Of a DNA stretch of 32,307 nucleotides, positions 1-26,100 are shown in pieces. The stretch is from IMG/VR virus record IMGVR_UViG_2711768067_000015. One strand, 5' to 3'. The stretch comes from a virus (Duplodnaviria; Heunggongvirae; Uroviricota; Caudoviricetes). The notes below the pieces were generated by a model. The model made no database searches. It worked only from the letters and a program-made list of their open reading frames with translations, and was not told the origin of the DNA. The position numbers were made by a program, and so were the translations under genes. Position 1 is the stretch's first letter. Every line of letters begins with the position of its first letter.

Positions 1-573
1 GTGTTATCTTACTTAATAGCAATTCATTTTGTTTTACTTGGAAATTCTTCTGATTTAAAAAGCTTTTGGAAATCTGAAGTAATACGGCGAGAGCATATGA
101 ATATCTGGAGGCTTTTCAGAGAGAAAAAACAGCGTAACAGGAATTTCCTTTTCTGGTGGCGGCTGGCTAACGAAATGTATATTAATGGTAATAAATTACA
201 TAAGAAAGCTGCTAAAAAGTTAAACAATAAAATAATTAACAATTTTGGTTGCGAGATTGGACTGGGCGCAAAAATTGGAAAAGGGCTAACAATTCCCCAT
301 CACGCTGGAATTGTTGTTCATTTTGCTGTTGATGCTGGTGAAAATCTGGTGTTACGACAGAATACTACTATTGGACAGATAGATGGTGACATACCTGGTT
401 CAAGAGTAAAAATTGGTAGTAACGTTGATATCGGAGCTAATTGTTGCATCATTGGATTATCACGTAAAATTGGGGATAATGTAAAAATAGGCGCAATGTC
501 TTTTATAAATAAAGATATACCATCGAACTGCACATATATAACTAAAAAGAACGGTGTTGTTTTGTATAAATAG
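1..573 (+). CDS. Hexapeptide-repeat (left-handed beta-helix) acyltransferase, CysE/WcaB-like; may be 5'-partial at the window edge or start at the ATG at 97
   Basis: ORF-track translation shows tandem hexapeptide motifs (GAKIGKG, IGSNVDIGANCCI, IGDNVKIGAMSFI) typical of serine/sugar O-acetyltransferases. Codon 1 is GTG and the frame is open to the window edge. Sequence is visibly AT-rich compared with the neighbouring phage genes. Confidence 0.7.
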   Translation: MLSYLIAIHFVLLGNSSDLKSFWKSEVIRREHMNIWRLFREKKQRNRNFLFWWRLANEMYINGNKLHKKAAKKLNNKIINNFGCEIGLGAKIGKGLTIPHHAGIVVHFAVDAGENLVLRQNTTIGQIDGDIPGSRVKIGSNVDIGANCCIIGLSRKIGDNVKIGAMSFINKDIPSNCTYITKKNGVVLYK

Positions 574-580
574 AGCACAT

Positions 581-619
581 AAAGCCATCGATATTTCTAT
601 CGATGGCTTTTTCTTTTTA
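581..619 (+). terminator. Rho-independent terminator downstream of the acyltransferase gene
   Basis: Inverted repeat aaagccatcgat / atcgatggcttt with a 6-nt loop, immediately followed by a T-rich tract (ttttctttttatt) on the plus strand. Confidence 0.55.
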
Positions 620-1195
620 TTGTGGGGCGACTGGCCACTCAATATCCGCTGCTACTGTTGTATCAACACGATTCAACAATACCCGATATGTCTTCCATGC
701 AGCCAGTAACGATGCCTCTTCCTCCGTCGCAATATCCAAATCTACGGCATCCTGAAGTGGCGCAATATGCTCACTGGCTACCTGCATCAGGCTGTTTTTT
801 GTTTCTTCCGCCTCCTGGATCCGGAACAGTTTTTCTGCTTCTGCATCTTTCACCCAGGATGTACCGTTCCACTTCTGAAACTCCCCTTCCGGGGATAACC
901 AGGTGACATTTTCCGGTAATGGGCCAAGTTCAGAAATAAATAACGCGTCGCCAGAAGCCACGTCATAGACGGTTTTACCCCGATGGTCTTCAACGAGATG
1001 CCACGATGCCTCATCAGTGTTGAAAACAGCCACGAAGCCAGCCGGAATATCTGGCGGTACAATATCGGTACTGTTTGCAGGCAGACCTGTATGAGGTGGA
1101 ATGTATGCATCACCTTCACCAATAAATTCATTAGTTCCGGCCAGCAGATTATAAATTTTTATGGTCTGTGGTTGTTCACTCATTCTGAATGCCAT
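617..1195 (-). CDS. tfa: Tail fibre assembly protein (Tfa-like chaperone)
   Basis: 192-aa ORF directly downstream of the tail fibre gene with overlapping stop/start. N-terminal sequence [34 protein letters not shown] matches my recollection of enterobacterial prophage Tfa proteins. Confidence 0.85.
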
Positions 1196-2307
1196 TATGC
1201 GAGCCTCACAATATAGTTAAATGCGATGTTTTTGACGGTGTTTTCCGCGTTACCAGCAGCGTTAACGGTGATGGTGTGTCCATGTGAACCAATCGCAACG
1301 GAGTGCGTGTGTGCACCAATACCGACAGTGTGCTGATGAAAACCAATACCTACAGTATGAGAATGTGAGCCAGAGGAACCTGTTGTTGCTGATGTATATT
1401 GAGTTGCCAGACGCCCAGATGTCAGTGGAATTTTCCCCCCCTGGTTTGCACCATCTGATGTTGGTATTGAATGCGTGTGACTCCCGGCGTTACTGGTAGT
1501 TTTGGTCCCATAGTCAAATAGTGAGGTTGTTTTCGTCCCGTAATCAAACGACGATGTGGTTTTCGTACCCAAATCCGTACTGGATACGCTGGCGCTGTGG
1601 GTGTGCGATTTAATGCCGTCCTGTTCCTGAGACAATACGGCACGACCACTGGCGGGCTTGCCCTTAATCGTCCAGCCACGCATATCAGGGATCACGCCTG
1701 ACGGATAAGCAGCTGCAAGTTTCGGGTATGCAGACTTGTCAAAAGTCTGTCCCTGCATCAGAGCATAACCAGATGGAACTGTATCTGATGGCCACGGGAT
1801 CGGGGCACCTACAGGAAAGGTCGAATTATTTTCCAAACCAAGATATTTAAGGACATCAGCAACAGAGCTTTTTGCCAAAATATCTCGCCCAACCTGTGTC
1901 AGGTCAGCCAAATTAGCGGTATCTTGATTGGTAAAATACGGTAATTTGTTTTCGGATGCTGAAAGATTAGCAAGTGCGGTAAGTATGGCATTAATTCTCT
2001 GATAGTTCTTATCTAATGCAGACGACATTTTTGCGATAAAGCCGGCCTGATCGCCATCGTCCTGTACATCCAGTCCACTTTCATTTGCTGTATATTGTGC
2101 TATTGCAGATGCAATAAAGCTGGCCTGCCGAATAGCCTTGTTGACTTGCGCGCTGGATGCTTTCCCTGCTGTAAATCCTGATAAAAGCGCAGGCAACGCT
2201 TCCCATTCATCCTGCGACATAACATTGGCATTTTTACCCGTTGCAAACGCTTTAAAGTCATTTTTCGCCATCAGAGTAATACTCCCCATGCCCCTACATC
2301 AAAACCA
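866..2307. repeat. Direct repeat copy 1 (about 1.44 kb) spanning the 5' part of tfa and the whole tail fibre gene; identical to 3176..4617
   Basis: ORF-track proteins from three frames are identical between the copies at a constant offset of 2310 bp (1195..2289 vs 3505..4599; 983..1216 vs 3293..3526; 1284..1499 vs 3594..3809; 1422..1679 vs 3732..3989). Borders were read directly from the sequence. Confidence 0.9.
1195..2289 (-). CDS. Tail fibre protein, copy 1 (364 aa, His-rich HxH repeats in the C-terminal tip)
   Basis: Follows the gp48-like baseplate gene and precedes tfa. C-terminus carries [28 protein letters not shown] motifs typical of enterobacterial phage fibre tips. Confidence 0.85.
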
Positions 2308-2362
2308 ACCAGCAGATTATAAATTTTTATGGTCCGTGGTTGTTCACTCATTCTGAATGCCA

Positions 2363-3505
2363 TTATGCAAGCCTCACAATATAGTTAAATGCGATGTTTT
2401 TGACGGTGTTTTCCGCGTTACCAGCAGCGTTAACGGTGATGGTGTGTCCATGTGAACCAATCGCAACGGAGTGCGTATGAGCACCAATACCGACAGTATG
2501 CGCGTGTGCACCTGCAGATGCTGCTGTGCCGGACAGTGAGTGGCTATGATTACCATCTGTACTGGTATTAGCTAACCACCCCGTAGACATACCTACTGAA
2601 CCTTGTACACCCCAGGTATTTTGACCTGAGCTTGTATAACCATATTGATAAGTATCTTTAAAAACACTGGGGTTAAATCGACGGCCATCTCTATGGCTGT
2701 GATTACCAGCTGCATTCGTGCTGCCACTTAAACTATGAGTATGCGCACCAGTGTTATTCGTGGATTTAGTGCCGTAATCAAACGATGATGTGGTTTTCGT
2801 ACCCAAATCCGTACTGGATACGCTGGCGCTGTGGGTGTGCGATTTAATGCCGTCCTGTTCCTGAGACAATACGGCACGACCACTGGCGGGCTTGCCCTTA
2901 ATCGTCCAGCCACGCATATCAGGGATCACGCCTGACGGATAAGCGGCCGCAAGTTTCGGGTAAGCAGATTTGTCAAAAGTCTGCCCCTGCATCAGGGCAT
3001 AACCAGACGGAACGGTATCTGATGGCCACGGGATTGGTGCGCCGACTGGGTAGCTTTCTGGTGGAAGATTTTTCGAGGTATAAACTTCTGCCCAGTCTTC
3101 CTCAAAACCATAACCGTCTCTTGAAGAACGGTAGAACAGACCACCATTTCTGTAATGCGCCTTCATCTGCAAACCGTTCCACTTCTGAAACTCCCCTTCC
3201 GGGGATAACCAGGTGACATTTTCCGGTAATGGGCCAAGTTCAGAAATAAATAACGCGTCGCCAGAAGCCACGTCATAGACGGTTTTACCCCGATGGTCTT
3301 CAACGAGATGCCACGATGCCTCATCAGTGTTGAAAACAGCCACGAAGCCAGCCGGAATATCTGGCGGTACAATATCGGTACTGTTTGCAGGCAGACCTGT
3401 ATGAGGTGGAATGTATGCATCACCTTCACCAATAAATTCATTAGTTCCGGCCAGCAGATTATAAATTTTTATGGTCTGTGGTTGTTCACTCATTCTGAAT
3501 GCCAT
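2363..3505 (-). CDS. Chimeric ORF: Tfa N-terminal 110 aa fused in frame, via a 41-aa linker, to an alternative tail fibre C-terminal tip cassette
   Basis: First 110 aa are identical to Tfa (617..1195). The C-terminal part aligns with the fibre tip but has a divergent central segment (about 2480..2770), flanked by stretches identical or near-identical to the fibre gene. Whether it is expressed is unknown. Confidence 0.55.
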
Positions 3506-4617
3506 TATGCGAGCCTCACAATATAGTTAAATGCGATGTTTTTGACGGTGTTTTCCGCGTTACCAGCAGCGTTAACGGTGATGGTGTGTCCATGTGAACC
3601 AATCGCAACGGAGTGCGTGTGTGCACCAATACCGACAGTGTGCTGATGAAAACCAATACCTACAGTATGAGAATGTGAGCCAGAGGAACCTGTTGTTGCT
3701 GATGTATATTGAGTTGCCAGACGCCCAGATGTCAGTGGAATTTTCCCCCCCTGGTTTGCACCATCTGATGTTGGTATTGAATGCGTGTGACTCCCGGCGT
3801 TACTGGTAGTTTTGGTCCCATAGTCAAATAGTGAGGTTGTTTTCGTCCCGTAATCAAACGACGATGTGGTTTTCGTACCCAAATCCGTACTGGATACGCT
3901 GGCGCTGTGGGTGTGCGATTTAATGCCGTCCTGTTCCTGAGACAATACGGCACGACCACTGGCGGGCTTGCCCTTAATCGTCCAGCCACGCATATCAGGG
4001 ATCACGCCTGACGGATAAGCAGCTGCAAGTTTCGGGTATGCAGACTTGTCAAAAGTCTGTCCCTGCATCAGAGCATAACCAGATGGAACTGTATCTGATG
4101 GCCACGGGATCGGGGCACCTACAGGAAAGGTCGAATTATTTTCCAAACCAAGATATTTAAGGACATCAGCAACAGAGCTTTTTGCCAAAATATCTCGCCC
4201 AACCTGTGTCAGGTCAGCCAAATTAGCGGTATCTTGATTGGTAAAATACGGTAATTTGTTTTCGGATGCTGAAAGATTAGCAAGTGCGGTAAGTATGGCA
4301 TTAATTCTCTGATAGTTCTTATCTAATGCAGACGACATTTTTGCGATAAAGCCGGCCTGATCGCCATCGTCCTGTACATCCAGTCCACTTTCATTTGCTG
4401 TATATTGTGCTATTGCAGATGCAATAAAGCTGGCCTGCCGAATAGCCTTGTTGACTTGCGCGCTGGATGCTTTCCCTGCTGTAAATCCTGATAAAAGCGC
4501 AGGCAACGCTTCCCATTCATCCTGCGACATAACATTGGCATTTTTACCCGTTGCAAACGCTTTAAAGTCATTTTTCGCCATCAGAGTAATACTCCCCATG
4601 CCCCTACATCAAAACCA
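3176..4617. repeat. Direct repeat copy 2 (identical to 866..2307)
   Basis: Same evidence as copy 1. To the right it continues into the unique gp48-like gene. Confidence 0.9.
3505..4599 (-). CDS. Tail fibre protein, copy 2 (identical to copy 1)
   Basis: Protein is identical to 1195..2289. The start overlaps the stop of the gp48-like gene, which is the native context. Confidence 0.85.
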
Positions 4618-5261
4618 CTGATAAATTCGTTATCCATATCAAAACCAAAAAATTTTGAGCCTTCCGATGGGGTTTCCACCGAAGGTGTTTCAATGCCACC
4701 CGCCCACACACCGGCGGCTTTTACTGTGAGATATCCCTGTTTAATTGCAGCAATTAACTCACGCGATACATCTGAAATATCATTATCGGGAAAGACCCAG
4801 ACCGATATCGTCATGTCCTGGTTATCGACTATCTGCATTCGCAGCCCGGATCCTGCTGTTGCCGCGTCAAGAATTGCCGGAAGCGAATCATTCCGTCCGT
4901 CCCAGTTATTAATCGCAATCTTCGCTTTAAGAATGACACGATAAGTTTCATCGCTGAGATACATGTATCCAGAATCAGGATCATATGGCCCCTGCCATAC
5001 CCCCTGATCATATCCAAGCCCGTCGGTATCCCAGCTGAAATAGACACCTGAGATAGGCTGGCTGACAACACGGCTACGTCCGATCCACAATCCCAGAATG
5101 TCAAGTTGCACACCAACCGCAGAGTCAATATCAAATGCAGTAATCAGCCCTCTGGTGGCCGCCGCAACATCAATAAGCGGCCGGGTCATCAGATCAACAT
5201 GTGCAAGAAATTTAGGTTTGGTGGCGTGGTAGTTCGTGATTAGTTCGGTGTATTTGCTCAT
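4581..5261 (-). CDS. Baseplate/tail protein, Mu gp48-like (by position and size)
   Basis: 226-aa ORF between the baseplate J-like gene and the tail fibre gene, with ATGA start/stop overlap to the upstream gene. Confidence 0.7.
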
Positions 5262-6457
5262 GACTCCACCGTTATAACGATATTTTCCGGGGTACAGTAC
5301 GCAGATTCGTTGTATCTGATATCAATGTTTGATGACGAAAAAGCCCCCGGGGATTTCCCAATCGTCAGTTCCTGAATATCGTAATAGCGTGCATTCCCGC
5401 CACTCACCACGCCAAGATTCGCCGGTGAGTAAATGCGACTTAAAAGGACCGAATCACCAATCATCAGACTATTGATATAGTCGGAAATAGCCTGCTGGAT
5501 CTGCTGCCCTATCTGTGAGGTATAACCCGTAAAAACTTTTAATTTAATCCGGGCATAAACAGGCACATCACTGGAACGCGAGAATTTGATTACATGGGGA
5601 TTGCCGTATTTATCCGGCACCGTAACGGATGTTGTACCGTGAGTGGCTGTCCCCTGACCTTTATTCCCTCTGATAGCCTGAGCAATATCCGTCACATCAC
5701 CACCATCCACAATTACAGCAACAGAGTGTGGCGGTAACCCGTTACCGTCCTCCGAACCAGTATCGTTTTCATAGAGTTTGTGGCGGGTTACACCGGTGAC
5801 ATTAGAAACAGCACCATCCAGTGCTTCAAATGGGGTTATTGATGGCAACGCAACACTTTGCGACTGGCGGATACGTAACTCCGCATCAGTTTCTGCCGGA
5901 GTGCCCACAGTGGCTGCAGCAGGATTGGTTACCGAAACCCAGCCACGGGTTGGCGTATTAATTTCAGTGATAGTTCCAGCCAGCGCCGCCACTGCGCCAC
6001 TGACGGAACATGTTGCGGTCACCATCACTGTACCATCCACGCCTACCACCACTGAAGCAGGCAAACGCCATATCACATTATTACTGTCTTTCACGCTGCC
6101 ATTAATGATGGTTGTTCCGGCAGTTCCTGTAAGAAGCAAATCAACCGTAGAGTTCGTCGCGCCTTTACGTGAAATACCATTTATTTTCACGTTACTGGTC
6201 AGTGCAGCCCCATAGCCGGTTGCCGGTGAAAAACAGTTGTAGACAGTTATCGCCGTATTATTGGCATCATGAATCGCCAGCGCCATCAGAGCCACCATCT
6301 GGCCGTCTTTGCTGTCCGGTTCGAGGTAGGCATCACTGCCATAAATCTGCTGAAAATAGCTAATCAGGGTGCTGAGTATCGTCTGATAATCAGGCGCACT
6401 GATCCCCTCCGCGGTTACCTTTGCAGATAAACCGAGAGAATCAAGGTTCAGAGCCAT
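5258..6457 (-). CDS. Baseplate J-like protein (Mu gp47-like)
   Basis: 399-aa ORF in the baseplate gene string. Size and position match baseplate wedge J-family proteins. Confidence 0.7.
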   Translation of the reverse strand: MALNLDSLGLSAKVTAEGISAPDYQTILSTLISYFQQIYGSDAYLEPDSKDGQMVALMALAIHDANNTAITVYNCFSPATGYGAALTSNVKINGISRKGATNSTVDLLLTGTAGTTIINGSVKDSNNVIWRLPASVVVGVDGTVMVTATCSVSGAVAALAGTITEINTPTRGWVSVTNPAAATVGTPAETDAELRIRQSQSVALPSITPFEALDGAVSNVTGVTRHKLYENDTGSEDGNGLPPHSVAVIVDGGDVTDIAQAIRGNKGQGTATHGTTSVTVPDKYGNPHVIKFSRSSDVPVYARIKLKVFTGYTSQIGQQIQQAISDYINSLMIGDSVLLSRIYSPANLGVVSGGNARYYDIQELTIGKSPGAFSSSNIDIRYNESAYCTPENIVITVES

Positions 6458-6810
6458 TACGCCTCCGATGTAACAGTCGTTATTCCATAGAGAGTGTCGA
6501 TTTCAGCGGAAAACATGACACGTCGGGTCGTGGTATCCACCGTCGTATTGAAAGAGAGGATTGATTTAACGCCCCGCGTTTCGAGGATGCGCTTACGGAT
6601 CGCAAGATTGTAGGTTTCCGGCTTCTGCTTACCGAGTACGGACTGGATCCACGGAGTCCCCTCGGTGGTGTCGAGAAACCATTGCCCATACCACAATTCG
6701 AATCGCGTTTTTACCGCCTGCGCCACGGCCTCCGGTGAGTTAATCAGCCAGGTGTCATCACCGCTGCCAAAGGTGTAATCGCCATCGGCGTCTTCACGTC
6801 TGTATCGCAT
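6457..6810 (-). CDS. Small baseplate protein (GPW/gp25-like, Mu gp46-like)
   Basis: 117-aa ORF translationally coupled between the spike-like and J-like genes. Confidence 0.65.
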   Translation of the reverse strand: MRYRREDADGDYTFGSGDDTWLINSPEAVAQAVKTRFELWYGQWFLDTTEGTPWIQSVLGKQKPETYNLAIRKRILETRGVKSILSFNTTVDTTTRRVMFSAEIDTLYGITTVTSEA

Positions 6811-7562
6811 CAGTTTACCCCATCGGTATTGCTTCCACCGCGCTGAACACCGCCATGAGTGTGCGTATCATCGATTGGCTTGCCGTTAGCCTTAACGCTC
6901 CCCAAGAACTCAACAGCACCAGTGATTTTTGAAGCCACACCAGAAACAACAGACCCCACCATGCCCCCCATCCAGGTTAACAGGCCATGAATGGTTACTT
7001 TCTCAGAAAAATCAGCCAGAGGGGCAACCACATCAAGACCACCCGGGGCGACAATTTTAATTTTCCGGGTATCAGGATTAAGCTCAAAATAGGTGCTGCC
7101 GTCGTCACTACGCAACTGTGTGGCACTGATATTAATACCGCTAATCTTCCTCGCCTGCGACTGGGGACCGGCTATACAAAACGCATCCGATAAATCATGC
7201 ATTCTGTCATCGACCGGCTCCTGTATCCCACCGCTCTGCCACCAGAAATCAATACAACGATCGGCAAAAACGACAAGACACTCATCCCCGGCTTTAACCG
7301 GAAAAGTCAACGTACAGCCTCCGCCGCGCGGAAATACCACTGGCACATCCACCAGCAACGGGTAATTTTTGGTAATGCGGTTACCGTCGTTATCCTTTTC
7401 AACCGAACGGATAGCTGGCTGTACAACCGCCGTCACCGCGTCGGGATCGAATGACTGAACAATGCCAGGCAAGGCGACACGGATCTGGTTCTTTGTTGTT
7501 TCCCGTTCAGATTTGAATGTTTCGGCAAGGTCGCCGCTGCGGGTCTGGTCAGATACTGCCAT
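6810..7562 (-). CDS. Baseplate spike/assembly protein V-like (Mu gp45-like)
   Basis: ORF begins at the ATG at 7562 (MAVSDQTRSGD...) with a GGAGCC ribosome-binding site; the track's longer version uses a TTG. Size and position match phage baseplate spike proteins. Confidence 0.7.
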   Translation of the reverse strand: MAVSDQTRSGDLAETFKSERETTKNQIRVALPGIVQSFDPDAVTAVVQPAIRSVEKDNDGNRITKNYPLLVDVPVVFPRGGGCTLTFPVKAGDECLVVFADRCIDFWWQSGGIQEPVDDRMHDLSDAFCIAGPQSQARKISGINISATQLRSDDGSTYFELNPDTRKIKIVAPGGLDVVAPLADFSEKVTIHGLLTWMGGMVGSVVSGVASKITGAVEFLGSVKANGKPIDDTHTHGGVQRGGSNTDGVN

Positions 7563-7581
7563 TAAGTAGGCTCCAGAAAGC

Positions 7582-7606
7582 AAAAAACCCGCCGGGTGGC
7601 GGGTTC
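7582..7606 (-). terminator. Rho-independent terminator after the 79-aa membrane protein gene
   Basis: Minus-strand hairpin AACCCGCC-ACCC-GGCGGGTT followed by TTTTTTG, 16 nt downstream of the stop at 7622. Confidence 0.6.
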
Positions 7607-7621
7607 ATTATTGAAGTTTCA

Positions 7622-7861
7622 TTACTGCTTGTTTGCTTCTAACGCTTCAGCTATTCGGCGAAGATACTCATTGTTTTTAAATGAAACCATGATGCACTCA
7701 AAGAATATTCGGCAAAATACAGCACATAACAAAAGCACTAAAGCGCCAGCAGCCTTCCCATTAACAAACGTTATAATGGCGGCAACAACCAGAAGTAACA
7801 TTGTGATGCCATACAGAACGTTGATGATTTTTGGAGTTATTAATTTATCAAATCCGAACAT
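7622..7861 (-). CDS. Small membrane protein (79 aa, two predicted transmembrane helices); moron-like cargo gene
   Basis: Two hydrophobic stretches (ITMLLLVVAAIITFV and ALVLLLCAVFCRIFFECIMV). AAGGA ribosome-binding site, with its own promoter-like element upstream and a terminator downstream. Confidence 0.6.
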   Translation of the reverse strand: MFGFDKLITPKIINVLYGITMLLLVVAAIITFVNGKAAGALVLLLCAVFCRIFFECIMVSFKNNEYLRRIAEALEANKQ

Positions 7862-7897
7862 GCGACAAATTCCTTATCGTGAAAGTAGAAGTACCAC

Positions 7898-7925
7898 ATT
7901 ATAATTACGAGTGATTAATCAACAA
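7898..7925 (-). promoter_or_regulatory. Candidate sigma70 promoter for the 79-aa gene
   Basis: On the minus strand: TTGTTG (-35), a 16-nt spacer, then TATAAT (-10), ending about 36 nt upstream of the ATG at 7861. Confidence 0.4.
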
Positions 7926-8256
7926 TCTTTTTGCATGGAAAGGAACCGATGATTTTCGGCGCATCCATGCTGTTCTGCAGCAGTTGGACATTCAGGAATC
8001 GCGTTTCGGTACCAGGGCGACGAATGTATTCAAAGCCGTAGTTGTTACCGTCTTTGGCAGGCATAAGCCCCATGTCTACTTTCAAACCATTGGTACCCAG
8101 TTCGGTGATTTTTTGAGAGGTAACTCTTTCACCGTTGATTGTCGATAACTCGCCCTGGTTTGCAACCATAGTGTAGCCACCGCATTTAACCGTGAAGCCA
8201 TCCGCCCACGCGCTGCACGCAGAAAAGACAGCTAACAGAAAAATAATACCCCTCAT
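7915..8256 (-). CDS. Secreted or lipoprotein-type small protein (113 aa) of unknown function
   Basis: N-terminal signal peptide MRGIIFLLAVFSACSAWA with an AWA/DG signal peptidase I motif (or possible FSAC lipobox). Two Cys in the mature part. Starts 4 nt after the upstream 353-aa gene. Confidence 0.65.
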   Translation of the reverse strand: MRGIIFLLAVFSACSAWADGFTVKCGGYTMVANQGELSTINGERVTSQKITELGTNGLKVDMGLMPAKDGNNYGFEYIRRPGTETRFLNVQLLQNSMDAPKIIGSFPCKKIVD

Positions 8257-8259
8257 TGC

Positions 8260-9321
8260 TCATCCCCTTTGCAAAGCCGATTGCGTATACAGATCCGCCG
8301 CGCCACGCGCTTCGCACATCATATCCATGTACCACGCCTGGCCTCTTGTATCGCCACTGTACATAATCCCGCGCACAATATAAACGCCATCCGTTGCGAT
8401 GCTGGCAGGCTGCGATGTGGTGCCGCTGAGCGTGATATTTCCGTCCGTGTTCTGGTCGGTGATCTGACCACCAGCCATCGCAATATCGTTGTTCGACAAC
8501 GCGGTACGATAGACGGAAGCCTGATCCAGCTGAATGAGCCCGTTAACCCGGATGTTCGGATTAATAAGAGCGCGGACGTTTACGCCGTTGCCGATGGTCT
8601 GCTGCGGCATGCCAATAAGCCCGGTAGCACTGTTGAGCACAATCGCTTCGTGAACATATTCATTAGTCGCCACCATCTGGCGCTGACCGTCCACGAATTG
8701 CCATGTTGCGCCACATTGCCCGGCTACATTATCCATAAGATGCCGCGTCATGCCAAAGAGTACCCGCCCCCGGGGGAATACAGTAGCAGGCATTTCAGGC
8801 GTCAGGCCTTCGGTCGCGCCTTTGTCTTCGAAGTCTTTCATCAGCGCACGGTTCACATCAGCGACTGTGTAACCGGCAGCCAGCGTCTGTGAGGTTATAC
8901 TGGTGGCAAAAGCCAGATCTGTATCGGCTGCCTGAATCAGGACGTAGGAATCAACCGGACTGTCTTTTCCTGTGACCGAGTAGCGAATTTCACCGCTGAA
9001 AATCAGTCCGTAGTTGCGGCCATCACTCTGGCCCACGTCCGCCGCATCAACCTCCCGCACGATCCCGACGTCGCTTGCCGACACCTCCGGCGCGATACCG
9101 TCGTAACCCGCCATCAGACGCACTTTCGAAAACTCCTGTCCGGTAATTCGGTTCACAGTATCTGCCGAGAGGTTATAAATTTTGATAGTCCCTACCCGGG
9201 ACGCGCTGCTGATGTTGAACCAGTCGATCGTAAAGGTGACTTTGAAATCACTTAGCTCAATTCCCTGACCGTTCCCGTCCACAAGCTGCAGCTCGAAATG
9301 TCTCATCCAGTTCTGTGACAT
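8260..9321 (-). CDS. Tail/baseplate protein (353 aa), possibly hub-like
   Basis: Long ORF in the tail gene string between tape measure and the baseplate genes. Function inferred from position only. Confidence 0.6.
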   Translation of the reverse strand: MSQNWMRHFELQLVDGNGQGIELSDFKVTFTIDWFNISSASRVGTIKIYNLSADTVNRITGQEFSKVRLMAGYDGIAPEVSASDVGIVREVDAADVGQSDGRNYGLIFSGEIRYSVTGKDSPVDSYVLIQAADTDLAFATSITSQTLAAGYTVADVNRALMKDFEDKGATEGLTPEMPATVFPRGRVLFGMTRHLMDNVAGQCGATWQFVDGQRQMVATNEYVHEAIVLNSATGLIGMPQQTIGNGVNVRALINPNIRVNGLIQLDQASVYRTALSNNDIAMAGGQITDQNTDGNITLSGTTSQPASIATDGVYIVRGIMYSGDTRGQAWYMDMMCEARGAADLYTQSALQRG

Positions 9322-9323
9322 GC

Positions 9324-9629
9324 TTACTCCGTTGATACCAGTAAATGACTGCGGCCGCCCAGGTCAGTTTTTGTGGGGTAATCCTGTGTGTTGTCATCAC
9401 AGACCACCACCAGCTTAAAACCAAGCCCCATACAGGCGTACTGCGCCAGCAGGTCAGCACCAGTGACGAGAGGAATACCGGAGATTACCGGCTCCCCTCT
9501 GTCGTTCTGCAGGTCCATAATCCAGTACAGATCGCGCCATATGATGCTAATCCGCCAGGTGACACCACCCAGGACGATGCTGAACTGCTGGTTGTCCGCT
9601 GTCAGCGGAATTTCCTGAATTGTCATCAA
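9324..9629 (-). CDS. Tail protein (101 aa)
   Basis: ORF translationally coupled within the tail gene string. Confidence 0.6.
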   Translation of the reverse strand: MMTIQEIPLTADNQQFSIVLGGVTWRISIIWRDLYWIMDLQNDRGEPVISGIPLVTGADLLAQYACMGLGFKLVVVCDDNTQDYPTKTDLGGRSHLLVSTE

Positions 9630-10213
9630 CCGCCCCCCAGTAATGACGCCACGTTACCCGTGATGCTTTTCAGCAGTGAAGTATCTGGAGGCTTTGTGGT
9701 TTTGTTGCCGCTATTCTGTACCGCCGACGTGCTGGCCCCTTCCTTCATGTTGGTTTTATCCGCGACGGTAATCTGCTGTGTCAGGGAGATAAGGACCTCC
9801 CTCAGGGTGAGGACGGCGGACAGGACGTTTTCGGTTGTCTTGTCCGTCGTCACTTCCAGCGCCCGGATCAACATGTTGCTGTACAGCCGTTTACCGGTTA
9901 CCACATCGAAGGGGATACGACTTTCCTGCAGATCCAGTAGCTCCTGATACGTCTGCTGAGGACTCAGGCCGAGCAGGCTGGTAGCCGTCAGGTTACTGGC
10001 AAAATCCAGCAATGCGCCGCCACCGGCGAAACCAACCTCCATCACCACTTCTGACGGTTTTTTATAGGCATGATCAGCGACAGCGGCCCCGACCTCTACC
10101 GGATGCTCTGTTATTTCAAGCATATCTGTATGCTTCTCTGAAATAACAACACTGGGAACAATCATTCCTATTTTTCTGCTCTGCTGATGAAAAAGTGTAG
10201 AGAGAATATCCAC
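9626..10213 (-). CDS. Tail protein (195 aa) immediately downstream of tape measure
   Basis: ORF with start/stop overlap to neighbours. Function inferred from position only. Confidence 0.6.
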   Translation of the reverse strand: MDILSTLFHQQSRKIGMIVPSVVISEKHTDMLEITEHPVEVGAAVADHAYKKPSEVVMEVGFAGGGALLDFASNLTATSLLGLSPQQTYQELLDLQESRIPFDVVTGKRLYSNMLIRALEVTTDKTTENVLSAVLTLREVLISLTQQITVADKTNMKEGASTSAVQNSGNKTTKPPDTSLLKSITGNVASLLGGG

Positions 10214-12201
10214 TAACCCACCCTCACCTGATTACTTCGCATGACCTGAGCATTTGCAGACTGTTGCCGACGTGCAACCTCATTACCGACAGCGTGCGGA
10301 TCTCCGCCACCGTAAATGTGGTAAGTATTTTGCTGGTTAACCTCTGTCACTTTGCCACTAATTCCTGCCACGGCAGCCTTATTAATCAGCTCTCGGGAAT
10401 AGATATTTCTTCCATTTTCATGCTGGATAATACTGCTCATCAATGCTGACATGGTTTGCGGATCGCTCATATTCAGGGCAGCCCGGGGATCCACTCCCAG
10501 TCGTTGCGATACAGCCCTGATATACGCAGTTGTGTTGTTATTATCAGACGCAGGTGCCCAGGTAGAGATAATTTTCTCCACACTGTTTATTCCCCGTCCG
10601 GCGTACAGCATTAACTGACGAGCAAGAGCCCGTAATCCATCAAAGGCAGTTTCAAATCTGGCAAATCGCCCGCCCGGGCGTTCAAGAGAAGCCCCTGCCT
10701 GACCAGCAAAATTAAGGTTTCCCGGATTGTTATTCCGTTCTCCTCGTTTCGTAGCCTGTGCATGTTGTTCCGGCTCATCATCACCAAACCAGCTGCGTAC
10801 CGTCCGGCCCACGCTACGGGGATCGAATCCCCAGTGCTCTTTAATCCAGTCGGCAGTACTGTTAGCGCTGTCTGTAACCATCGGCATCGCTGACGGATTT
10901 GCGCTGCCCTGATTAAGTATCTGTTTGCCGATGCTGACGGCATCAGCCCAGCGGCCATCTTTGATAGCGTTGAGCAGGTCGGCGATCATGTTCAGCATTT
11001 TGCTGAATTCGCCCATCTGGTCGATGAAGTTGCTGAAATCCCACTTCAGGGACCATGATTTGGGGTCAATATTGAGTAGTTTCGCCAGCGCTTTCGCCAG
11101 GTCGTTAACGGTCGTTTTAAGGTCACGAACCATCTTCAGCGCGGCATCGACCTCCGGTTTCCACTTGCCCCAGTCAATCAGGCTGTCGCCGCCTTCCTTC
11201 CAGGTCTGATAGTCCTCCCACAGGAGGGCAATACCCGCCGCCAGCGCGGTAATGAGGCCAATCGGCGACATCCAGAACGTACTGTTCAGAATGCGCAGCG
11301 CAATCGTCAGTGCGCCAAACAGCGAGATCAACTCCCGCGTTTGCTTATCCAGCGATTGCCACCAGGTGATGAGGCTTGATGTTCCTTCAATCAGTCTGAA
11401 GAACAGCCGCCCGATAATATCCCCGAGCGCCAGAATGCCTTTTATGGCTTTCGTCAGGGTCTGCTCGATACGAGGGAAGTTGTCCAGGATATGGCGGCGC
11501 AGGGTGTCCAGCGAACCCGCAAGCCCACCCGCAAGATTAGAGCCGATTTTGTCACGGGCCATGCCTGCCATCGCGCCAAACTCACGCAGGGAGGTCATAA
11601 ATTTGTTGGAGCTTCTGGCCGCCTCGTCAGCATTGAAGCCGATAGCTTTCGCCATTGCGCTGTACTGCCCGGAGAAGCCACCCACACCCCGGCGCATCGC
11701 CATAAGGGTATTTTCGTCAATGCCCAGCATCTGCGCATACTGGTTAGCCCGGTAATACGGCATGCCGCTGAGCTTCTGGCCTACACCTGTAAAAATAGCG
11801 GCCATGTCACGCATGTTACCGCTGGCATCCCGTGTCTGTACCCCCAGGCGATTCAGAAATCCCTCTGCCCCGGGATTGATACGAATAAACCGGGAGAGGC
11901 TTTCCAGAGAAGATCGCGCAGCGTCCACGCTGCCGCCAACCTGCGAAACCGCATAGCCAATAGACTGAATTCCCTGGACTGTCGCGCCAGTGCGCTGTGA
12001 CGCCCAGTAAAGATTATCCAGGCCGGAGGCAATCTTAGCCGTAAAGGCCACCACGGACAGTGCAGCTCCTTCAACGGCCAACCCCATTTTGATGACATTT
12101 GCAGTTGTCCCGGCGAGGACAGAACCGAATTTTTTTGCTCCAGCATCATCCACACTGAAGCCAAGCGAGACGAGAAAATCTTTAATAGTTTCAGCGTTCA
12201 T
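10213..12201 (-). CDS. Tail tape measure protein
   Basis: Long, Ala/Gly-rich, predicted helical ORF downstream of the tail chaperone. The ATG at 12201 has a GGAGAGAGG ribosome-binding site; the track start at 12222 is a TTG. Confidence 0.85.
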   Translation of the reverse strand: MNAETIKDFLVSLGFSVDDAGAKKFGSVLAGTTANVIKMGLAVEGAALSVVAFTAKIASGLDNLYWASQRTGATVQGIQSIGYAVSQVGGSVDAARSSLESLSRFIRINPGAEGFLNRLGVQTRDASGNMRDMAAIFTGVGQKLSGMPYYRANQYAQMLGIDENTLMAMRRGVGGFSGQYSAMAKAIGFNADEAARSSNKFMTSLREFGAMAGMARDKIGSNLAGGLAGSLDTLRRHILDNFPRIEQTLTKAIKGILALGDIIGRLFFRLIEGTSSLITWWQSLDKQTRELISLFGALTIALRILNSTFWMSPIGLITALAAGIALLWEDYQTWKEGGDSLIDWGKWKPEVDAALKMVRDLKTTVNDLAKALAKLLNIDPKSWSLKWDFSNFIDQMGEFSKMLNMIADLLNAIKDGRWADAVSIGKQILNQGSANPSAMPMVTDSANSTADWIKEHWGFDPRSVGRTVRSWFGDDEPEQHAQATKRGERNNNPGNLNFAGQAGASLERPGGRFARFETAFDGLRALARQLMLYAGRGINSVEKIISTWAPASDNNNTTAYIRAVSQRLGVDPRAALNMSDPQTMSALMSSIIQHENGRNIYSRELINKAAVAGISGKVTEVNQQNTYHIYGGGDPHAVGNEVARRQQSANAQVMRSNQVRVG

Positions 12202-12378
12202 TATCCTCTCTCCATTTCTCAATGCGCCGCTGGTTATCCGCTTTTACCGCCAGATGGTCATTCAAGAGAGCAATATCGTACAAATCGACAGAGCCATCTT
12301 TAAGTGCTGTATAAGGAATTAACCCGGCGTCAACCGGATTGAGAAGGTAGGACAGCCCGTCCGGCAGGCTGTTAAACG

Positions 12379-12831
12379 TCAGCCCTGTTGCAGGCTCTGC
12401 GTCGTGCTGGTAAGGGATGTAGGCAAAAAATTTCCCAGCGAATTGGCGACCACCCGCGCCACCAGATGAAGCATGACCAGCAGGTCAATATCATCAAACA
12501 TCAGTTCGCCCTGGGTAAATACCGGCACCCATCCGTCCATATGACGCCGCGATACCACCGCAAGACAGGGATGAATAATCGCATCGGTGTCATCTTCGGT
12601 CAGGGAAGACAGTTCCTCAGCGATACGCGGGAGCATGGTTTCAAACACCGGTTTTAACTGCTCGAATTTCACGGTGTCGATTTTGCCATCAGCAGGCAAA
12701 CGGGAGCGAATGCTCCCGAAATCTGACATCATTCCCGCCAGCACCGGCAGAAGTTTGCGGGTCACTTTCAGCTGGTCAAAAACGCTGAGTTTTGCCACGC
12801 GATATTTCACGCCTTTAATTTCGAATTCCAT
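12379..12831 (-). CDS. Tail assembly chaperone (G-like), with a candidate -1 frameshift extension to 12191
   Basis: 150-aa ORF between the tube and tape measure genes. A slippery heptamer and an open -1 frame run up to the tape measure start (see findings). Confidence 0.75.
   Translation of the reverse strand: MEFEIKGVKYRVAKLSVFDQLKVTRKLLPVLAGMMSDFGSIRSRLPADGKIDTVKFEQLKPVFETMLPRIAEELSSLTEDDTDAIIHPCLAVVSRRHMDGWVPVFTQGELMFDDIDLLVMLHLVARVVANSLGNFLPTSLTSTTQSLQQG
12424..12430 (-). other. Candidate -1 ribosomal frameshift slippery heptamer T_TTT_TTG in the chaperone gene
   Basis: In zero frame the codons read aaT TTT TTG (N F L). The -1 frame downstream is open for 83 codons to a TGA at 12191..12193. 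Confidence 0.45.
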
Positions 12832-12834
12832 GCA

Positions 12835-13275
12835 TTAAAACTCCCCGAGAACCTGGTCAATCTTGCCGCAGTCAAACACCCACGGCATCGTATTACCGGT
12901 TTTAGCGTTGGCGTTATCCGGTTGTTTCTGGAACGCAACACTGCGTGCCGTGATGATGTCGCCGCTGACCTTGTTGCGGATCACGATAACGTTATTCCCC
13001 CATGTGGCAGAAGACTGGCTCTGTGCGTTATACGCCAGCGACAATTTTTTATTTGTCGGTGATGTCTTCAGAAGGTTAACGGTAATTGTCCCGCTTTTAT
13101 CTGCATGAAGACTGTGCATCACTTCGCCATCAGAACCGATGGTCATGGTGTTTTTAGGACCGCCCATCGCAACCACAATCCCCTCTTCAGAACTTGCCGA
13201 ACCGTACCCGAGGTCAATCGAACCGGTCGGCCCGGTCAGCGTCGCAGTGACATCCATAAAAGAATAGGTAGACAT
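12835..13275 (-). CDS. Tail tube protein
   Basis: 146-aa ORF between the sheath-like gene and the chaperone, in the canonical myovirus order sheath-tube-chaperone-tape measure. Confidence 0.65.
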   Translation of the reverse strand: MSTYSFMDVTATLTGPTGSIDLGYGSASSEEGIVVAMGGPKNTMTIGSDGEVMHSLHADKSGTITVNLLKTSPTNKKLSLAYNAQSQSSATWGNNVIVIRNKVSGDIITARSVAFQKQPDNANAKTGNTMPWVFDCGKIDQVLGEF

Positions 13276-13285
13276 TCACTTCCCC

Positions 13286-14431
13286 TTAGCGAACAACGTT
13301 AATCTGTACGTCAGCGTAATGAACCGCGCCTGCAAGTTTTATTGCAGCCTGAATCACCGGAGCCTTACGGGCTTCACGTTCTGATTGTGCCTGTTCATCC
13401 AGCGGCTGGGCGTATACGTAATAACCTTTGGGCAGCGTGTCACCTGATGACAACTGACCAAGGTCGCCCCCGTTCCATACGCCCGGAGCAATCAGTCCAT
13501 TCTGAACGGCCTGATCCAGTGATTTTTCAACATTTGATAACAGTCGGGTAATACCGGCTTCAGTCTGGGGAACTTTCGTGGTGCTGGTATAAAGCAGGTT
13601 ATAAAGGTTGGTCTGCACATAATTCTGTAACCAGTCCAGGCCGTGGCGTTCATCAAAGAAATCGCCGTTAGCCATCACTCCCTGCTGGAGGATAGCTGTA
13701 TCATTCTGGTAGTACACGAACACATTGCAGTTTTTTGCATCAAGTGCCGATGCCTGGCTGACTGTCAGTGTTTCATACCCGACACCCGGCTCCTGCTTAA
13801 ACTTGAGCGTAATCGCGGTATTACTGCCATTGAAATTAACCGTGAATGCCCGGCCAAATGCAGATAACGCAGCGTATTTATTACCCGATGAATACTGAAT
13901 AAAACTGCGTGAATATCCGGCGGTTTTCAGTTTTGATGCCAAATCATCGCTGGATGCAGTCTGCAGGCATTTCTCATCGCTTGTCGTAATCGCCAGAATA
14001 CGGCTTACAGAAGAGGATTCGATCGCCGCAGCCACTTTCAGCCAGTCTGCATCCGGAATATCTTCATCGTCTGCAATCCCCAGCCCATACCATGAAGTAT
14101 AATCAAGCATGGCATTCACAGCCTGCTCCAGCGTCTCATGCGTGGCCTGTTCGCTGTCTCCCTTCGTTTTCACCCAACGACCAACAAAAACCTCCTGAGG
14201 TTTCGGTGATTGTGAGAAAAACACCTGCGCAGCCTTATATTCTGGTGATTCCACGCCAAAATCTTTTCCAATATCTTCCGCGGCAGAATAACGGCGAATG
14301 CGCTCACTTACCGGAATGATTGTGGACGGGCCGAGAATGAGTAATGCACCAAAATTTCGCCCTGATGCTGCACGCGGCGACATGATCACATCAACATTAA
14401 CAACGTTTGATACAGGCAAGCCCTGTGCCAT
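13286..14431 (-). CDS. Tail sheath protein
   Basis: 381-aa ORF immediately upstream of the tube gene. The window also carries baseplate J and spike homologues, indicating a contractile tail. Confidence 0.65.
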
Positions 14432-14434
14432 AGC

Positions 14435-15043
14435 TTAATCTCCGAAAAAGATGACTGGTGCTTCCACCAGCGATTTAATACCGTACTCGCGCACAACCTT
14501 CCGGCGCAGACGCACCGTCATATCGTAGCGGCGGACCCATTGCTGATTAATAAGTTCAGGGAAGGGAGTCAGACCTGTGTAATCGCCAAGAGACAGCCCC
14601 AGCGCATTCAGTGCTGCGTTGTTCTGCGGTACAGATATACCGTCACGAAACCGGGACGCATACACCATCCCCGCCGGACCATAAAACGAAGCCATACACT
14701 CAATCGTTTCATGCCGCCAGAGCTGAGAGCCATCATCGGTCTGTCTGGTGAATGCCGGACTGTCATCACCTGACCATCCGATAACCCCAAACGCACACCA
14801 GTTCGTTTCAGCCGGTAGCAGTGGCGGTTGCTCTTTCTGCCAGCGCGGACGAACCATCCCGGCAGACAGACCGGAAACGTTACGCATCCACTGGCTTAAC
14901 AGCCTGTCGAGCGCTTCGTCATAATCCGGATCGCCACTGGTTGGTATCAGCCATCCGCGCTCTGTGCTGGTGTTATTGCTCAACCGGAATTCCCCCATCA
15001 AACGGCAGCAACTCACAATGCGCCTGAACGAATCCGGCACCAT
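14435..15043 (-). CDS. Head-tail joining (neck) protein, hypothetical
   Basis: 202-aa ORF between the head and tail modules. Start is uncertain; it overlaps the upstream gene by about 70 nt in another frame. Confidence 0.55.
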   Translation of the reverse strand: MVPDSFRRIVSCCRLMGEFRLSNNTSTERGWLIPTSGDPDYDEALDRLLSQWMRNVSGLSAGMVRPRWQKEQPPLLPAETNWCAFGVIGWSGDDSPAFTRQTDDGSQLWRHETIECMASFYGPAGMVYASRFRDGISVPQNNAALNALGLSLGDYTGLTPFPELINQQWVRRYDMTVRLRRKVVREYGIKSLVEAPVIFFGD

Positions 15044-15362
15044 ACGCTGTATACGGGTCGACGAAAGTCACACGATAATCACGGCCCTGATACGTCACGA
15101 TATCGGCATCACGGCCAGTCTGTCCCTGCGTCAGTCGCTCAGTCGTCACAATCAGAATTGCACCACTGATTACCTGCCCGGCCTGCATACGACGGTTTTC
15201 CAGAGAGCGATCAACAGTTACGACTCCGGCAAACTGCTTTTTAACTTCGCTGTCGCTGCCGATCCCGTCCTCATCCACCGTTTGCACACGGCGTGTTACC
15301 CACAAATTGAAGTCGCAAAAATCGGGGTCAAAAAGCACATCTGTTACATCAAGAGTCGGCAT
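14973..15362 (-). CDS. Head-tail adaptor/completion protein, hypothetical
   Basis: 129-aa ORF in the neck gene string. Confidence 0.55.
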   Translation of the reverse strand: MPTLDVTDVLFDPDFCDFNLWVTRRVQTVDEDGIGSDSEVKKQFAGVVTVDRSLENRRMQAGQVISGAILIVTTERLTQGQTGRDADIVTYQGRDYRVTFVDPYTAYGAGFVQAHCELLPFDGGIPVEQ

Positions 15363-15903
15363 TTTTATCCCTCACAACATGGGTAATCGCTCTGCGATAT
15401 TGCCCGGTGTCAATTAATGGTTTCGCCAGTTCGGTTCCCGGGGATTCGCCAGCAGCACGCCGGGCAAGTTCCAGTGTTGCCCCCTTGCGCCCCCGACGAG
15501 CCCGGGCTTCAACAGTACTGTCAGCAAGCGGCGTAAAGCCGGTAATGGTCATGTAACGCCTGACGCCATTAGCGGCCAGTGTTCCGGCACGGTTGAGTGC
15601 GCTTTCTGCTCCCGCAGCATTACCATCAAGTGCAGCCTGCGCCGCGGCTTTGAGCTGCGGCACCGTCTGCTCTTCTGCCGATTTAACGCCGGGGACCAGG
15701 TGAGGTCGTGGCGGGATGTTCTGCTCTGGTGAGCCGTATTCGTTGAGGTAACCGATGCCCGCATTACCAAACGGAACATCATCCCGCTCGCTGTCTTCCG
15801 AAGGGATGCCGACCAGAACATCTTTTTTGGTTAACGACCTAAGCGCATCCAGAATGGCCTTAGCGTTATCCACCCTCGTTGTTACACCGCTTTTGAAACT
15901 CAT
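15349..15903 (-). CDS. Head completion / neck protein, hypothetical
   Basis: 184-aa ORF in the neck gene string. Confidence 0.55.
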
Positions 15904-16307
15904 AGCTGGCGACCACCTGCACCGAACATCGTAATCAACTGATAAAATTCAGCGCCATATCGGGTGTTATTCCAGAAACCTGCATCAGGATTCAGCGTCG
16001 CGCTGGTGTCATAACTGACGCTTACCTTATCCACGGACTTTGAGGACTGAACACCATTGGTTGAACCGCCCGGCCCGCCAGCCAGCATCGCCCGGATGTC
16101 TGCCGCCCAGAGCGTCATGTAGTGTGCAACGAACAATCCGGCAAAGTACGGAAACAACTTTTTGCTGGTGACGTTTTCGCTCAGCAGTTCATCGGCCAGA
16201 TTCAGACGAAACTGGATTTGCGCTTCGGGATATTTGGCAGGGTCAGCAAACTGCGGGAAGTCGCGGCGAAAATCACTTACCGCTGGCAGACTTTGATTCT
16301 TTGGCAT
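15900..16307 (-). CDS. Head-tail connector protein, hypothetical
   Basis: 135-aa ORF with ATGA overlap to the downstream gene. Confidence 0.55.
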
Positions 16308-16494
16308 TTTTTACCTCGTTACGCGCGTCTGTGGCTTTGCCAACGGATACTTCCGCGTGCGCACGAGTGAACCAGTGCGTGGCAACGTCTTCCTCCACAG
16401 CATGACGGCCTTTAACAAACTCGCGCCGCGAACCGTCGGGAAGCGTGAGCACAAACGGGGTATGTACGTGTATTACTGCATTATTTTTTGCCAT
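16273..16494 (-). CDS. Small head-associated protein, hypothetical
   Basis: 73-aa ORF directly downstream of the major capsid gene. Confidence 0.5.
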
Positions 16495-16535
16495 CGGGTC
16501 ATCCTTAATGGCCCCGCCAGGGGGCCATATGGCTG

Positions 16536-17477: not shown

Positions 17478-17488
17478 TCGTCTGTTCC

Positions 17489-17995
17489 TTAAATCTTCCA
17501 GGAAATTTCTGCATTGCCGTCAGCATCACCGGCACCTGTGAATTCAGCGTTGGTCAGCACCACGTTTTTGCCACTGACTGACGTGGACATGAATCCACCC
17601 AGCGGCACTTTGATGGATTCATCAGTGGAGACGACAACGTATACCGGGTCGCCTTTTTTGATGGTGCTGGCATCAAAATCAGAACCGAGATTAACGGTCA
17701 CGTAGCCACGCTTCATGGCGTCGCCCGGGAAGTTCTTGCCACTCCCCACCTGGCGAACCATGTCCGGCTGCGAAGTGGTCGGATAAGGGCGCACGTAGAT
17801 CCCCTTCACCTTGTCTGCGGTATCACCATCTGCCAGAGGCACGAAAAAACCGTCATCATCGTATTTACCAGCCAGCCCATAGGCAGCAAAGGCGTTATCG
17901 GATTTAAGGACCACCGGTTCGACGGTTAAGTCCTGCGGGCGAGAGACAGCCCCGGCAATGCCAACAGGCATCCGGTACAGAAATACATTATTCAT
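17489..17995 (-). CDS. Head structural protein (decoration or scaffold-related), hypothetical
   Basis: 168-aa ORF between the scaffold-like and major capsid genes. Confidence 0.55.
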   Translation of the reverse strand: MNNVFLYRMPVGIAGAVSRPQDLTVEPVVLKSDNAFAAYGLAGKYDDDGFFVPLADGDTADKVKGIYVRPYPTTSQPDMVRQVGSGKNFPGDAMKRGYVTVNLGSDFDASTIKKGDPVYVVVSTDESIKVPLGGFMSTSVSGKNVVLTNAEFTGAGDADGNAEISWKI

Positions 17996-17998
17996 TTT

Positions 17999-19219: not shown

Positions 19220-19233
19220 GTGTTACCTGCGAT

Positions 19234-22947: not shown

Positions 22948-22949
22948 AC

Positions 22950-23501: not shown

Positions 23502-23523
23502 AAATTACCTTTAAGGATTTCAC

Positions 23524-24078: not shown

Positions 24079-24104
24079 AGCCATTCTGCAAGGAATGGCT
24101 TTTG
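24079..24104 (+). terminator. Rho-independent terminator-like hairpin (plus strand)
   Basis: Stem AGCCATTC / GAATGGCT (8 bp), loop TGCAAG, followed by TTTTGTG. Confidence 0.45.
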
Positions 24105-26095: not shown

Positions 26096-26100
26096 ATATT

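Follow-up and report, generated by a model that had tools for sequence, protein, structure and literature searches.

The locus behind the DUF2612 baseplate gene of this prophage raises the question of whether it carries two identical tail fibre genes, or whether one gene has been written twice. The window, i.e. the whole stretch of 32,307 nucleotides analysed, was compared with itself, and 863..2307 was found to equal 3173..4617 (1445 bp, 0 mismatches, offset 2310). An earlier sequence-only reading had claimed a perfect direct repeat at 866..2307 and 3176..4617, and this is borne out, the repeat being slightly longer; a perfect repeat of 1.4 kb far exceeds what chance would give. That reading also assigned to each copy the whole tail fibre ORF plus the 5' part of tfa, which is correct, but the tfa part comprises the first 111 codons (to nt 333) rather than 110. 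Copy 1 spans the final gp48-like codons, the tail fibre gene and tfa nt 1-333. The right-hand copy had been described accurately as lying in its native context, continuous with the gp48-like gene upstream, and the 2307/2308 junction is present as described, a 5' fragment of tfa (2309..2363) abutting the end of the gp48-like gene. The features, read against the public draft record CYFS01000009.1 (GCA_001286245.1), are as follows.

1..573, + strand: hexapeptide-repeat (serine acetyltransferase-like) gene, convergent with tfa; it marks the end of the fibre module
617..1195, - strand: tfa, tail fibre assembly gene, real; 192 aa, Caudo_TAP (Pfam, E 2.1e-42)
863..2307: repeat copy 1, 1445 bp at the end of the left-hand scaffold piece, which runs up to the N of the record
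1195..2289, - strand: tail fibre gene written a second time, identical to 3505..4599
2271..2363, - strand: artefactual ORF, 30 aa, TfaQ residues 1-18 plus the C-terminus of the gp48-like protein, its frame running across the N at 2308
2308: junction J2; N in the record, A on the + strand of the window, T on the - strand
2309..3171, - strand: middle piece, 863 bp, a separate contig with an N at either end in the record
2363..3505, - strand: artefactual ORF, 380 aa, Tfa residues 1-111 plus the last 269 residues of lambdoid Stf
3172: junction J1; N in the record, A on the + strand of the window, T on the - strand
3173..4617: repeat copy 2, 1445 bp at the end of the right-hand scaffold piece
3505..4599, - strand: tail fibre gene in native context; longest ORF 364 aa, phage tail collar domain
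4581..5261, - strand: DUF2612 / Phage_Wedge1 (Mu gp48-like) baseplate gene, real; 226 aa, Pfam DUF2612 E 3.8e-47
28810..29832: ORF, 340 aa

The genes themselves are ordinary. The exact 226-aa DUF2612 protein is present on many contigs. The fibre gene, with its collar domain (E 2e-12), is followed by the Caudo_TAP gene with overlapping stop and start, one base being common at 1195, as in a fibre plus Tfa chaperone module, and tfa directly follows the fibre gene in every single-copy locus. In an exact-protein look-up the 364-aa fibre gave no protein on record, because public gene calls start the fibre at the second ATG (4581) and give 358 aa; the 358-aa query found the source record and single-copy relatives. 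The same look-up gave no exact protein for the 380-aa Tfa::Stf chimera.

We then read the window against its source record. Over window positions 1..11261, CYFS01000009.1 is identical at 11,259 of 11,261 positions, and the sole differences, at 2308 and 3172, are 'N' in the record. These two positions are exactly the two novel junctions, J2 and J1, and the bases that the window shows there are not real data. Given that N stands at both novel junctions, the duplicated layout consists of three pieces joined by a scaffolder without a sequenced junction. Gap characters, which are expected at the joins of an assembly artefact, were found at both J1 and J2, and the sequenced, reproducible junctions expected of a real tandem duplication were found at neither. 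The 380-aa ORF reads through the N at 3172, and in the record the codon at its fusion point contains that N. Of the two mismatches to the real tfa that had been counted within 2308..2362, the one at tfa nt 29 reflects a genuine divergence of lambdoid tfaQ from native tfa, and the other is the N-derived base. A literature search with the CYFS01 accession prefix found no account of the assembly method.

The structure of the joins could nevertheless be taken for a real rearrangement. At J1 (3172/3173), tfa nt 333 meets an internal part of a lambdoid stf gene; native tfa homology stops on one side and stf homology begins on the other, with at most 1 nt in common, and the junction homology at J2 is about 3 nt. 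Microhomology of 1-3 nt is what illegitimate recombination predicts. In a real duplication, two illegitimate joins (e.g. template switching in replication or break repair) would have doubled the stretch gp48'-fibre-tfa(1-111) and, between its two copies, taken up 863 bp of a resident lambdoid stf-tfaQ, giving two identical fibre genes and a Tfa::Stf fusion. The reading frame and the translational coupling signals are kept at both junctions, and read pairs presumably gave the scaffolder some grounds for ordering the pieces as it did. The in-frame joins (the 380-aa ORF at J1, and at J2 the 30-aa ORF ending at the gp48-like stop) look tidy for a real rearrangement and count against an artefact, the chance of both false joins being in frame being about 1 in 9. 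However, neither junction was sequenced, both being N in the record, whereas real junctions would have read coverage and be closed by a gap filler. A short-read assembler would also normally collapse a real perfect 1.4-kb repeat rather than resolve it. Prophages with 0-1 differences have a single copy, and neither junction is seen in any other assembly. A real duplication is accordingly considered very unlikely. Its most specific form, a single complex template-switching event that is real in the isolate, with a duplicated fibre cassette, a captured stf fragment, both joins in frame, two fibre genes and an expressed Tfa(N-terminal domain)::Stf(C-terminal) fusion, is more doubtful still. A real duplication would be a modest instance of illegitimate recombination rearranging fibre cassettes, something that mosaic tail fibre genes have long made familiar.

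Comparison with other assemblies was carried out with a collapsed window, i.e. the window minus one 2310-bp unit. Such a comparison with related prophages had been proposed by the sequence-only reading as a way to see whether a single-copy locus is ancestral, and the near-identical prophages proved to be single copy. The collapsed window was gap-free and colinear with the single-copy loci of seven other assemblies (L003, L004, L006-L010), with 0-23 mismatches: L008, L009 and L010 were 100% identical to it, L004 and L006 each had 1 mismatch in 8271 bp, and L003 and L007 had 23 and 22, respectively, in 8271 bp. Collapsing thus restores the structure of independent assemblies, and complete genomes H1-H8 are also single copy. 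Except for the source record, all contigs with the exact 358-aa fibre have one fibre copy. J1 and J2 were absent from the 5,426 complete E. coli genomes searched; the best matches there had 97-98% identity and covered the query within 2691 bp, the length expected of one copy, and no match crossed J2, while the matches in the J1 region were non-colinear pieces. Searches for J1 in metagenome_contigs and for J2 in genome_contigs gave no match, but native-sequence controls gave 1 and 0 hits, so that these searches had almost no power.

The middle piece was then traced. It consists of the 3' 809 nt of the lambdoid side tail fibre gene stf together with 55 nt from the start of tfaQ, and in one contiguous stretch it is identical (863/863) to stf/tfaQ of the lambdoid prophage adjoining ydfJ (the Qin site) in E. 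coli GF8; in many other genomes it is 99.9% identical. Judged from its sequence, the middle piece is foreign to the tail fibre locus and belongs to a lambdoid prophage. It also contains stretches that are 94-97% identical to the 3' end of the native fibre gene and to the start of tfa, native tfa and lambdoid tfaQ being about 95% identical. An inserted piece from another locus with common repeats, as an assembly artefact of this kind should contain, is therefore present, the identity being to E. coli GF8. In the same assembly, the lambdoid stf gene from which the piece would derive is predicted to break off, at a contig end, just upstream of TGCAGATGAAGGCGCATTAC.

A mixed isolate could also supply a foreign fibre end. 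Some genomes would then carry the native fibre cassette and others a lambdoid-type fibre C-terminus at the same locus, and the assembler would have strung them in series. Cassette replacement does occur in this phage group, in that the fibre cassettes behind the DUF2612 gene vary among related prophages. Yet the middle piece begins inside stf, at a point without homology to the native fibre, and stops after 55 nt of tfaQ, and its sequence is that of a Qin-site prophage which many E. coli carry. These start and end points, together with the Qin-site identity, make a second locus in the same genome the simpler source. Moreover, no related prophage has the stf C-terminus of the middle piece behind its DUF2612 gene. 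We regard a mixed population as scarcely credible.

The presence of an alternative fibre C-terminal cassette and a tfa start adjoining an expressed fibre gene is superficially like the Sv/U cassettes, and the locus could on that ground be a remnant or variant of a tail fibre switch (an invertible segment or shufflon, as in Mu G, P1 C, e14 P or p15B Min) that exchanges one fibre C-terminus for another through a site-specific recombinase. All cassettes are, however, in direct orientation, and no pair of inverted repeats that could hold crossover sites was found in 1..8000. No crossover core of the Hin/Gin type (AAACCNNGGTTT-type) lies close to the locus; the window as a whole has 2 matches, one at 12.6 and one at 20.8 kb, which is no more than chance. 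Gene calls in the flanks, both of the window and of related loci, include no recombinase or invertase, and the downstream neighbour is the hexapeptide acetyltransferase gene. The N characters at the junctions in the record also speak against switching. Programmed inversion or a shufflon was rejected on the lack of inverted repeats, crossover cores near the locus and a recombinase, and its probability is close to nil.

Collectively, the duplication is very probably a scaffolding and gap-filling artefact of a short-read draft assembly, laid over an ordinary single-copy locus. Recombination between tail fibre cassettes, which the sequence-only reading had put forward, is not supported, given N at both junctions, a single copy in near-identical prophages, and a middle piece from another, Qin-site prophage. 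Its caveat that such repeats can arise by assembly collapse or expansion is the explanation which the N junctions, the single-copy relatives and the foreign middle piece back, and its interpretation as a whole is partly supported. The stretches 1195..2289 and 3505..4599 are, on sequence grounds, most likely the same physical gene, and both the 380-aa Tfa::Stf 'chimera' and the 30-aa ORF owe their existence to the false joins. The real order of the locus is most likely DUF2612/gp48-like gene, tail fibre (358 aa), Tfa and then the convergent acetyltransferase gene.

The way in which such an artefact may have arisen can be outlined. Window 1..11261 is CYFS01000009.1 with its N characters swapped for a base, and in that record single-N gaps split the region into three pieces: a right-hand piece that ends at tfa nt 333, the 863-bp lambdoid piece, and a left-hand piece whose start lies within the gp48-like gene, 8 codons short of its end. 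Between the two large pieces there is an overlap of 1445 bp, in which one physical DNA is described twice. The lambdoid contig was probably drawn between them by read pairs because of the 94-97% identical stretches noted above. An edge-extension gap filler then probably followed the true sequence from either flanking edge into the false gaps, and these would never have been closed because no read links the flanking edges to the foreign contig. The end of the middle piece falls inside a 57-nt stretch common to native tfa and tfaQ, and the right-hand piece ends at tfa nt 333, where the two paralogues differ. When k-mer logic was applied to the tfa/tfaQ differences (tfa nt 29, 87, 333 and 337), the piece ends fell within shared sequence or at its margin; the exact stops (2307 and 3173) could not be derived. 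The specific software history of the record we infer solely from its single-N signature.

The main value of this case is a caution about draft scaffolds. Since the N characters are replaced by a base in the window, scaffold joins look like real sequence. Kilobase-scale perfect repeats, chimeric ORFs and 'recombination junctions' near prophage tail fibre paralogues call for a check of the original record first.

Three known systems bear comparison with the locus. Like Mu G, P1 C, e14 P and p15B Min, it shows alternative fibre C-termini, each with a tfa-type gene, beside an expressed fibre gene; unlike them, it has direct orientation throughout, has no inverted repeats, invertase or crossover sites, and has unsequenced junctions. 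With the lambdoid stf-tfa modules (lambda; Qin-site stf/tfaQ) the relation is one of sequence: the middle piece is identical to the Qin-site stf 3' end and tfaQ 5' end, and the native fibre C-terminus and tfa have 94-97% identical stretches with them. In contrast to lambda, the native fibre is short (358 aa) and lies behind the Mu gp48-like/DUF2612 baseplate gene of a contractile-tail prophage instead of J/lom. The third likeness is to the errors of SSPACE and GapFiller, which are described as greedy and prone to false joins, with joins written as N (PMC5320598). GapFiller lengthens each gap edge one base at a time, and only an overlap of 10 nt or more between the two extensions lets it close the gap (PMC3446322); one high-throughput Illumina pipeline runs 120 GapFiller iterations (PMC5320598). 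The false joins of these programs, with N at the joins, extension of two edges along real sequence, and unmergeable gaps left open, have the form seen here, and here too the locus is repeated sequence, namely prophage tail fibre/tfa paralogues; the single-N signature and the overlap geometry suggest programs of this kind.

The genes from baseplate J to the native tail fibre assembly gene tfa all lie on the minus strand of the window, and an acetyltransferase gene on the plus strand is convergent to them.

Genes of the tail fibre locus
5258..6457, minus: baseplate J gene (ORF call)
4581..5261, minus: DUF2612/Mu gp48-like gene (Pfam DUF2612)
3505..4599, minus: tail fibre gene, 364 aa as longest ORF and 358 aa in public gene calls (Pfam collar domain)
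2363..3505, minus: 380-aa ORF (Pfam: Tfa N-terminal part, then collar domain and fibre repeats)
2271..2363, minus: 30-aa ORF (ORF call)
1195..2289, minus: repeated copy of the tail fibre gene, same gene as 3505..4599
617..1195, minus: tfa (Pfam Caudo_TAP)
1..573, plus: hexapeptide acetyltransferase gene, convergent to tfa

Self-comparison of the window demonstrated that 863..2307 and 3173..4617 are the same 1445 bp, with no differences, at an offset of 2310. The identical repeat described at this offset in the sequence-only reading is present, but the true copy is 3 bases longer at the low end. The fibre gene has two candidate starts (4579..4599 and 2269..2289): the 364-aa ORF and the gp48-like gene have 19 nt in common, and the 358-aa start of the public calls is the next ATG, whose A is common to the gp48-like TGA stop.

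Looked up by exact protein, the 358-aa fibre was present on 11 contigs. The layout of 358-380-30-358-192 aa was found only in CYFS01000009.1 (GCA_001286245.1, 234 kb), and on the other contigs tfa came after just one fibre gene. Compared base by base, the window and CYFS01000009.1 differed at 2 of 8,271 positions, and at the same 2 of 11,261 over window 1..11261. At both positions, window 3172 and 2308, the record reads "N", and they coincide exactly with the junctions J1 (3172/3173) and J2 (2307/2308). Since the window holds only A, C, G and T, the record's N characters were replaced, in both cases by A on the plus strand. Neither J1 nor J2 is backed by sequence. Given the N at each junction, the duplicated layout consists of three separately assembled pieces with single-N gaps between them, and 1445 bp are shared by the two large pieces. 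The 380-aa ORF, a "Tfa::Stf chimera", and the 30-aa ORF each read through an N, which also explains why the exact-protein look-up gave no record of the 380-aa protein. The window was evidently cut from a draft scaffold with N swapped for a base. As a practical warning, this substitution conceals scaffold joins in the window; the comparison with the record spans 1..11261, and further hidden joins may be present in 11262..32307. An IS21-family element also lies inside the prophage (28810..30611, plus), and its exact transposase is extremely common (27,443 blocks listed; at least 8 copies in chromosome CP061272.1). An IS resolved within a short-read scaffold may be another place where joins are scaffold-derived.

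Genes of the IS21-family element
28810..29832, plus: istA-like, 340 aa (HTH_7/rve)
29829..30611, plus: istB-like, 260 aa

In gene orientation, J1 joins tfa nt 333 to the interior of a side tail fibre gene, with at most 1 base in common, and at J2 a tfa-type gene ends at nt 55 and is followed by the last 8 codons of the gp48-like gene. The piece at 2309..3171 gave a single contiguous match (863/863 identity) to the 3' end of stf and the first 55 nt of tfaQ, the side tail fibre and assembly genes of a lambdoid prophage adjoining ydfJ (the Qin site) in E. coli GF8, and it is 99.9% identical in many other E. coli. The 863 bp are no diverged version of the native fibre. At the fibre locus, a shufflon or programmed inversion system fails its defining features: neither inverted repeats nor a recombinase were present, and crossover cores were absent from the vicinity of the locus.

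The window was collapsed by deleting one 2310-bp unit and was then compared with related prophage loci in other assemblies. Every alignment to loci L003, L004 and L006-L010 was colinear and without gaps. L008, L009 and L010 were 100% identical over 1.9 to 4.0 kb, and over 8,271 bp there was 1 mismatch each for L004 (GCA_040233745.1) and L006, 22 for L007 and 23 for L003. Therefore, at least seven other assemblies contain essentially the same prophage with one copy of the locus, and several single-copy relatives share the chromosomal site beside torT/torR/torC. A search of 5,426 complete E. coli genomes gave best matches of 97-98% identity, which covered the 5-kb query within 2,691 bp, the single-copy length, and are annotated as DUF2612, tail fibre, tail fibre assembly protein and serine acetyltransferase. 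A query spanning J1 and J2 found no match across J2 in complete E. coli genomes, and around J1 only non-colinear pieces of stf-tfaQ loci. Junction scans of two large contig collections gave no matches; native-sequence controls were almost negative too, so these scans carry little weight. A real duplication with a captured insert in this prophage is, in our judgement, very improbable: it needs two illegitimate joins, both unsequenced although the assembler had reads across them, and short-read resolution of a perfect repeat of 1.4 kb, all within a prophage whose near-identical relatives are single copy. The two identical fibre genes, for which recombination between cassettes had been proposed, are a property of the window; with N at both junctions and single-copy relatives, the underlying feature is almost certainly not real biology.

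Short-read assemblers break at near-identical stretches, and read pairs can link wrong contigs. Lambdoid stf/tfaQ has stretches of 94-97% identity to the 3' end of the native fibre gene and to the 5' end of tfa. We infer, from the single N at each join and the geometry of the overlap, that a read-pair scaffolder would have set the 863-bp contig between two contigs that in truth adjoin or overlap, creating two false gaps. A gap filler would then have extended each gap edge along real reads, writing true sequence into both gaps, and the extensions, never able to merge with the foreign contig, would have left a residual N. The small contig ends within a 57-nt stretch identical in tfaQ and native tfa, and the right-hand piece ends at tfa nt 333, where the two genes differ; both ends fit the scaffolder account. 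SSPACE and GapFiller have been called greedy and prone to false joins, with joins written as N, and one widely used pipeline runs 120 GapFiller iterations (PMC5320598). GapFiller adds single bases in turn from both edges of a gap, and closure requires an overlap of at least 10 nt between the extensions (PMC3446322). The assembly software of CYFS01000009.1 was not found in a literature search. Two points fit the artefact account poorly: both false joins keep the reading frame (about 1 in 9 by chance), and the exact stopping points of the extensions are not derived from it. Compared with a second prophage of Qin type within one genome, a population mixed for two cassettes at this locus is a less simple source of the foreign piece.

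Most likely, the locus is in reality an ordinary tail fibre module in single copy, made up of the gp48-like, fibre and Tfa genes with the acetyltransferase gene convergent to them. It is part of a contractile-tail prophage, and in relatives of this prophage a variety of fibre cassettes occupy the same position. Close relatives (97-100% in the tail module) occupy two chromosomal sites, one beside torT/torR/torC (L003-L005, L008, L012-L014), as in the source record, and one beside yfhH/yfhB/tadA (L001, L011, L015, L017-L019); in L006, the same tail module adjoins a lambda-type integrase of another prophage. In L001 (E. coli 13E0780, complete genome), the fibre homologue at 15796..16872 is annotated as a pseudogene with its N-terminus missing, and about 450 bp between it and the DUF2612 gene are unannotated. 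Two small non-structural-looking ORFs lie amid the baseplate genes at window 7622..8256 (minus), a slot that holds different small genes in related prophages.

Small ORFs amid the baseplate genes
7622..7861, minus: DUF4282 membrane protein, 79 aa
7915..8256, minus: 113-aa ORF with a signal-peptide-like N-terminus

Window 1..1195 (fibre 3' end, tfa and serine acetyltransferase-like gene) is 92-97% identical to lambdoid and other phages, including vB_EcoM-Ro157c2YLVW and JL22; in JL22, the acetyltransferase-like gene is named sacF. These matches suggest that the acetyltransferase travels with the fibre/tfa module across phage types. In L011-L025, which have the same baseplate genes, differing cassettes follow the DUF2612/Phage_Wedge1 gene, at the equivalent of window 600..4600, for example Collar 358 aa with TAP 192 aa and a hexapeptide acetyltransferase; Gly_rich_2 355/361 aa; Gp53-like_C 242 aa with TAP 147 aa; and TAP 133 aa with Acyl_transf_3. 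This variety is ordinary cassette mosaicism.
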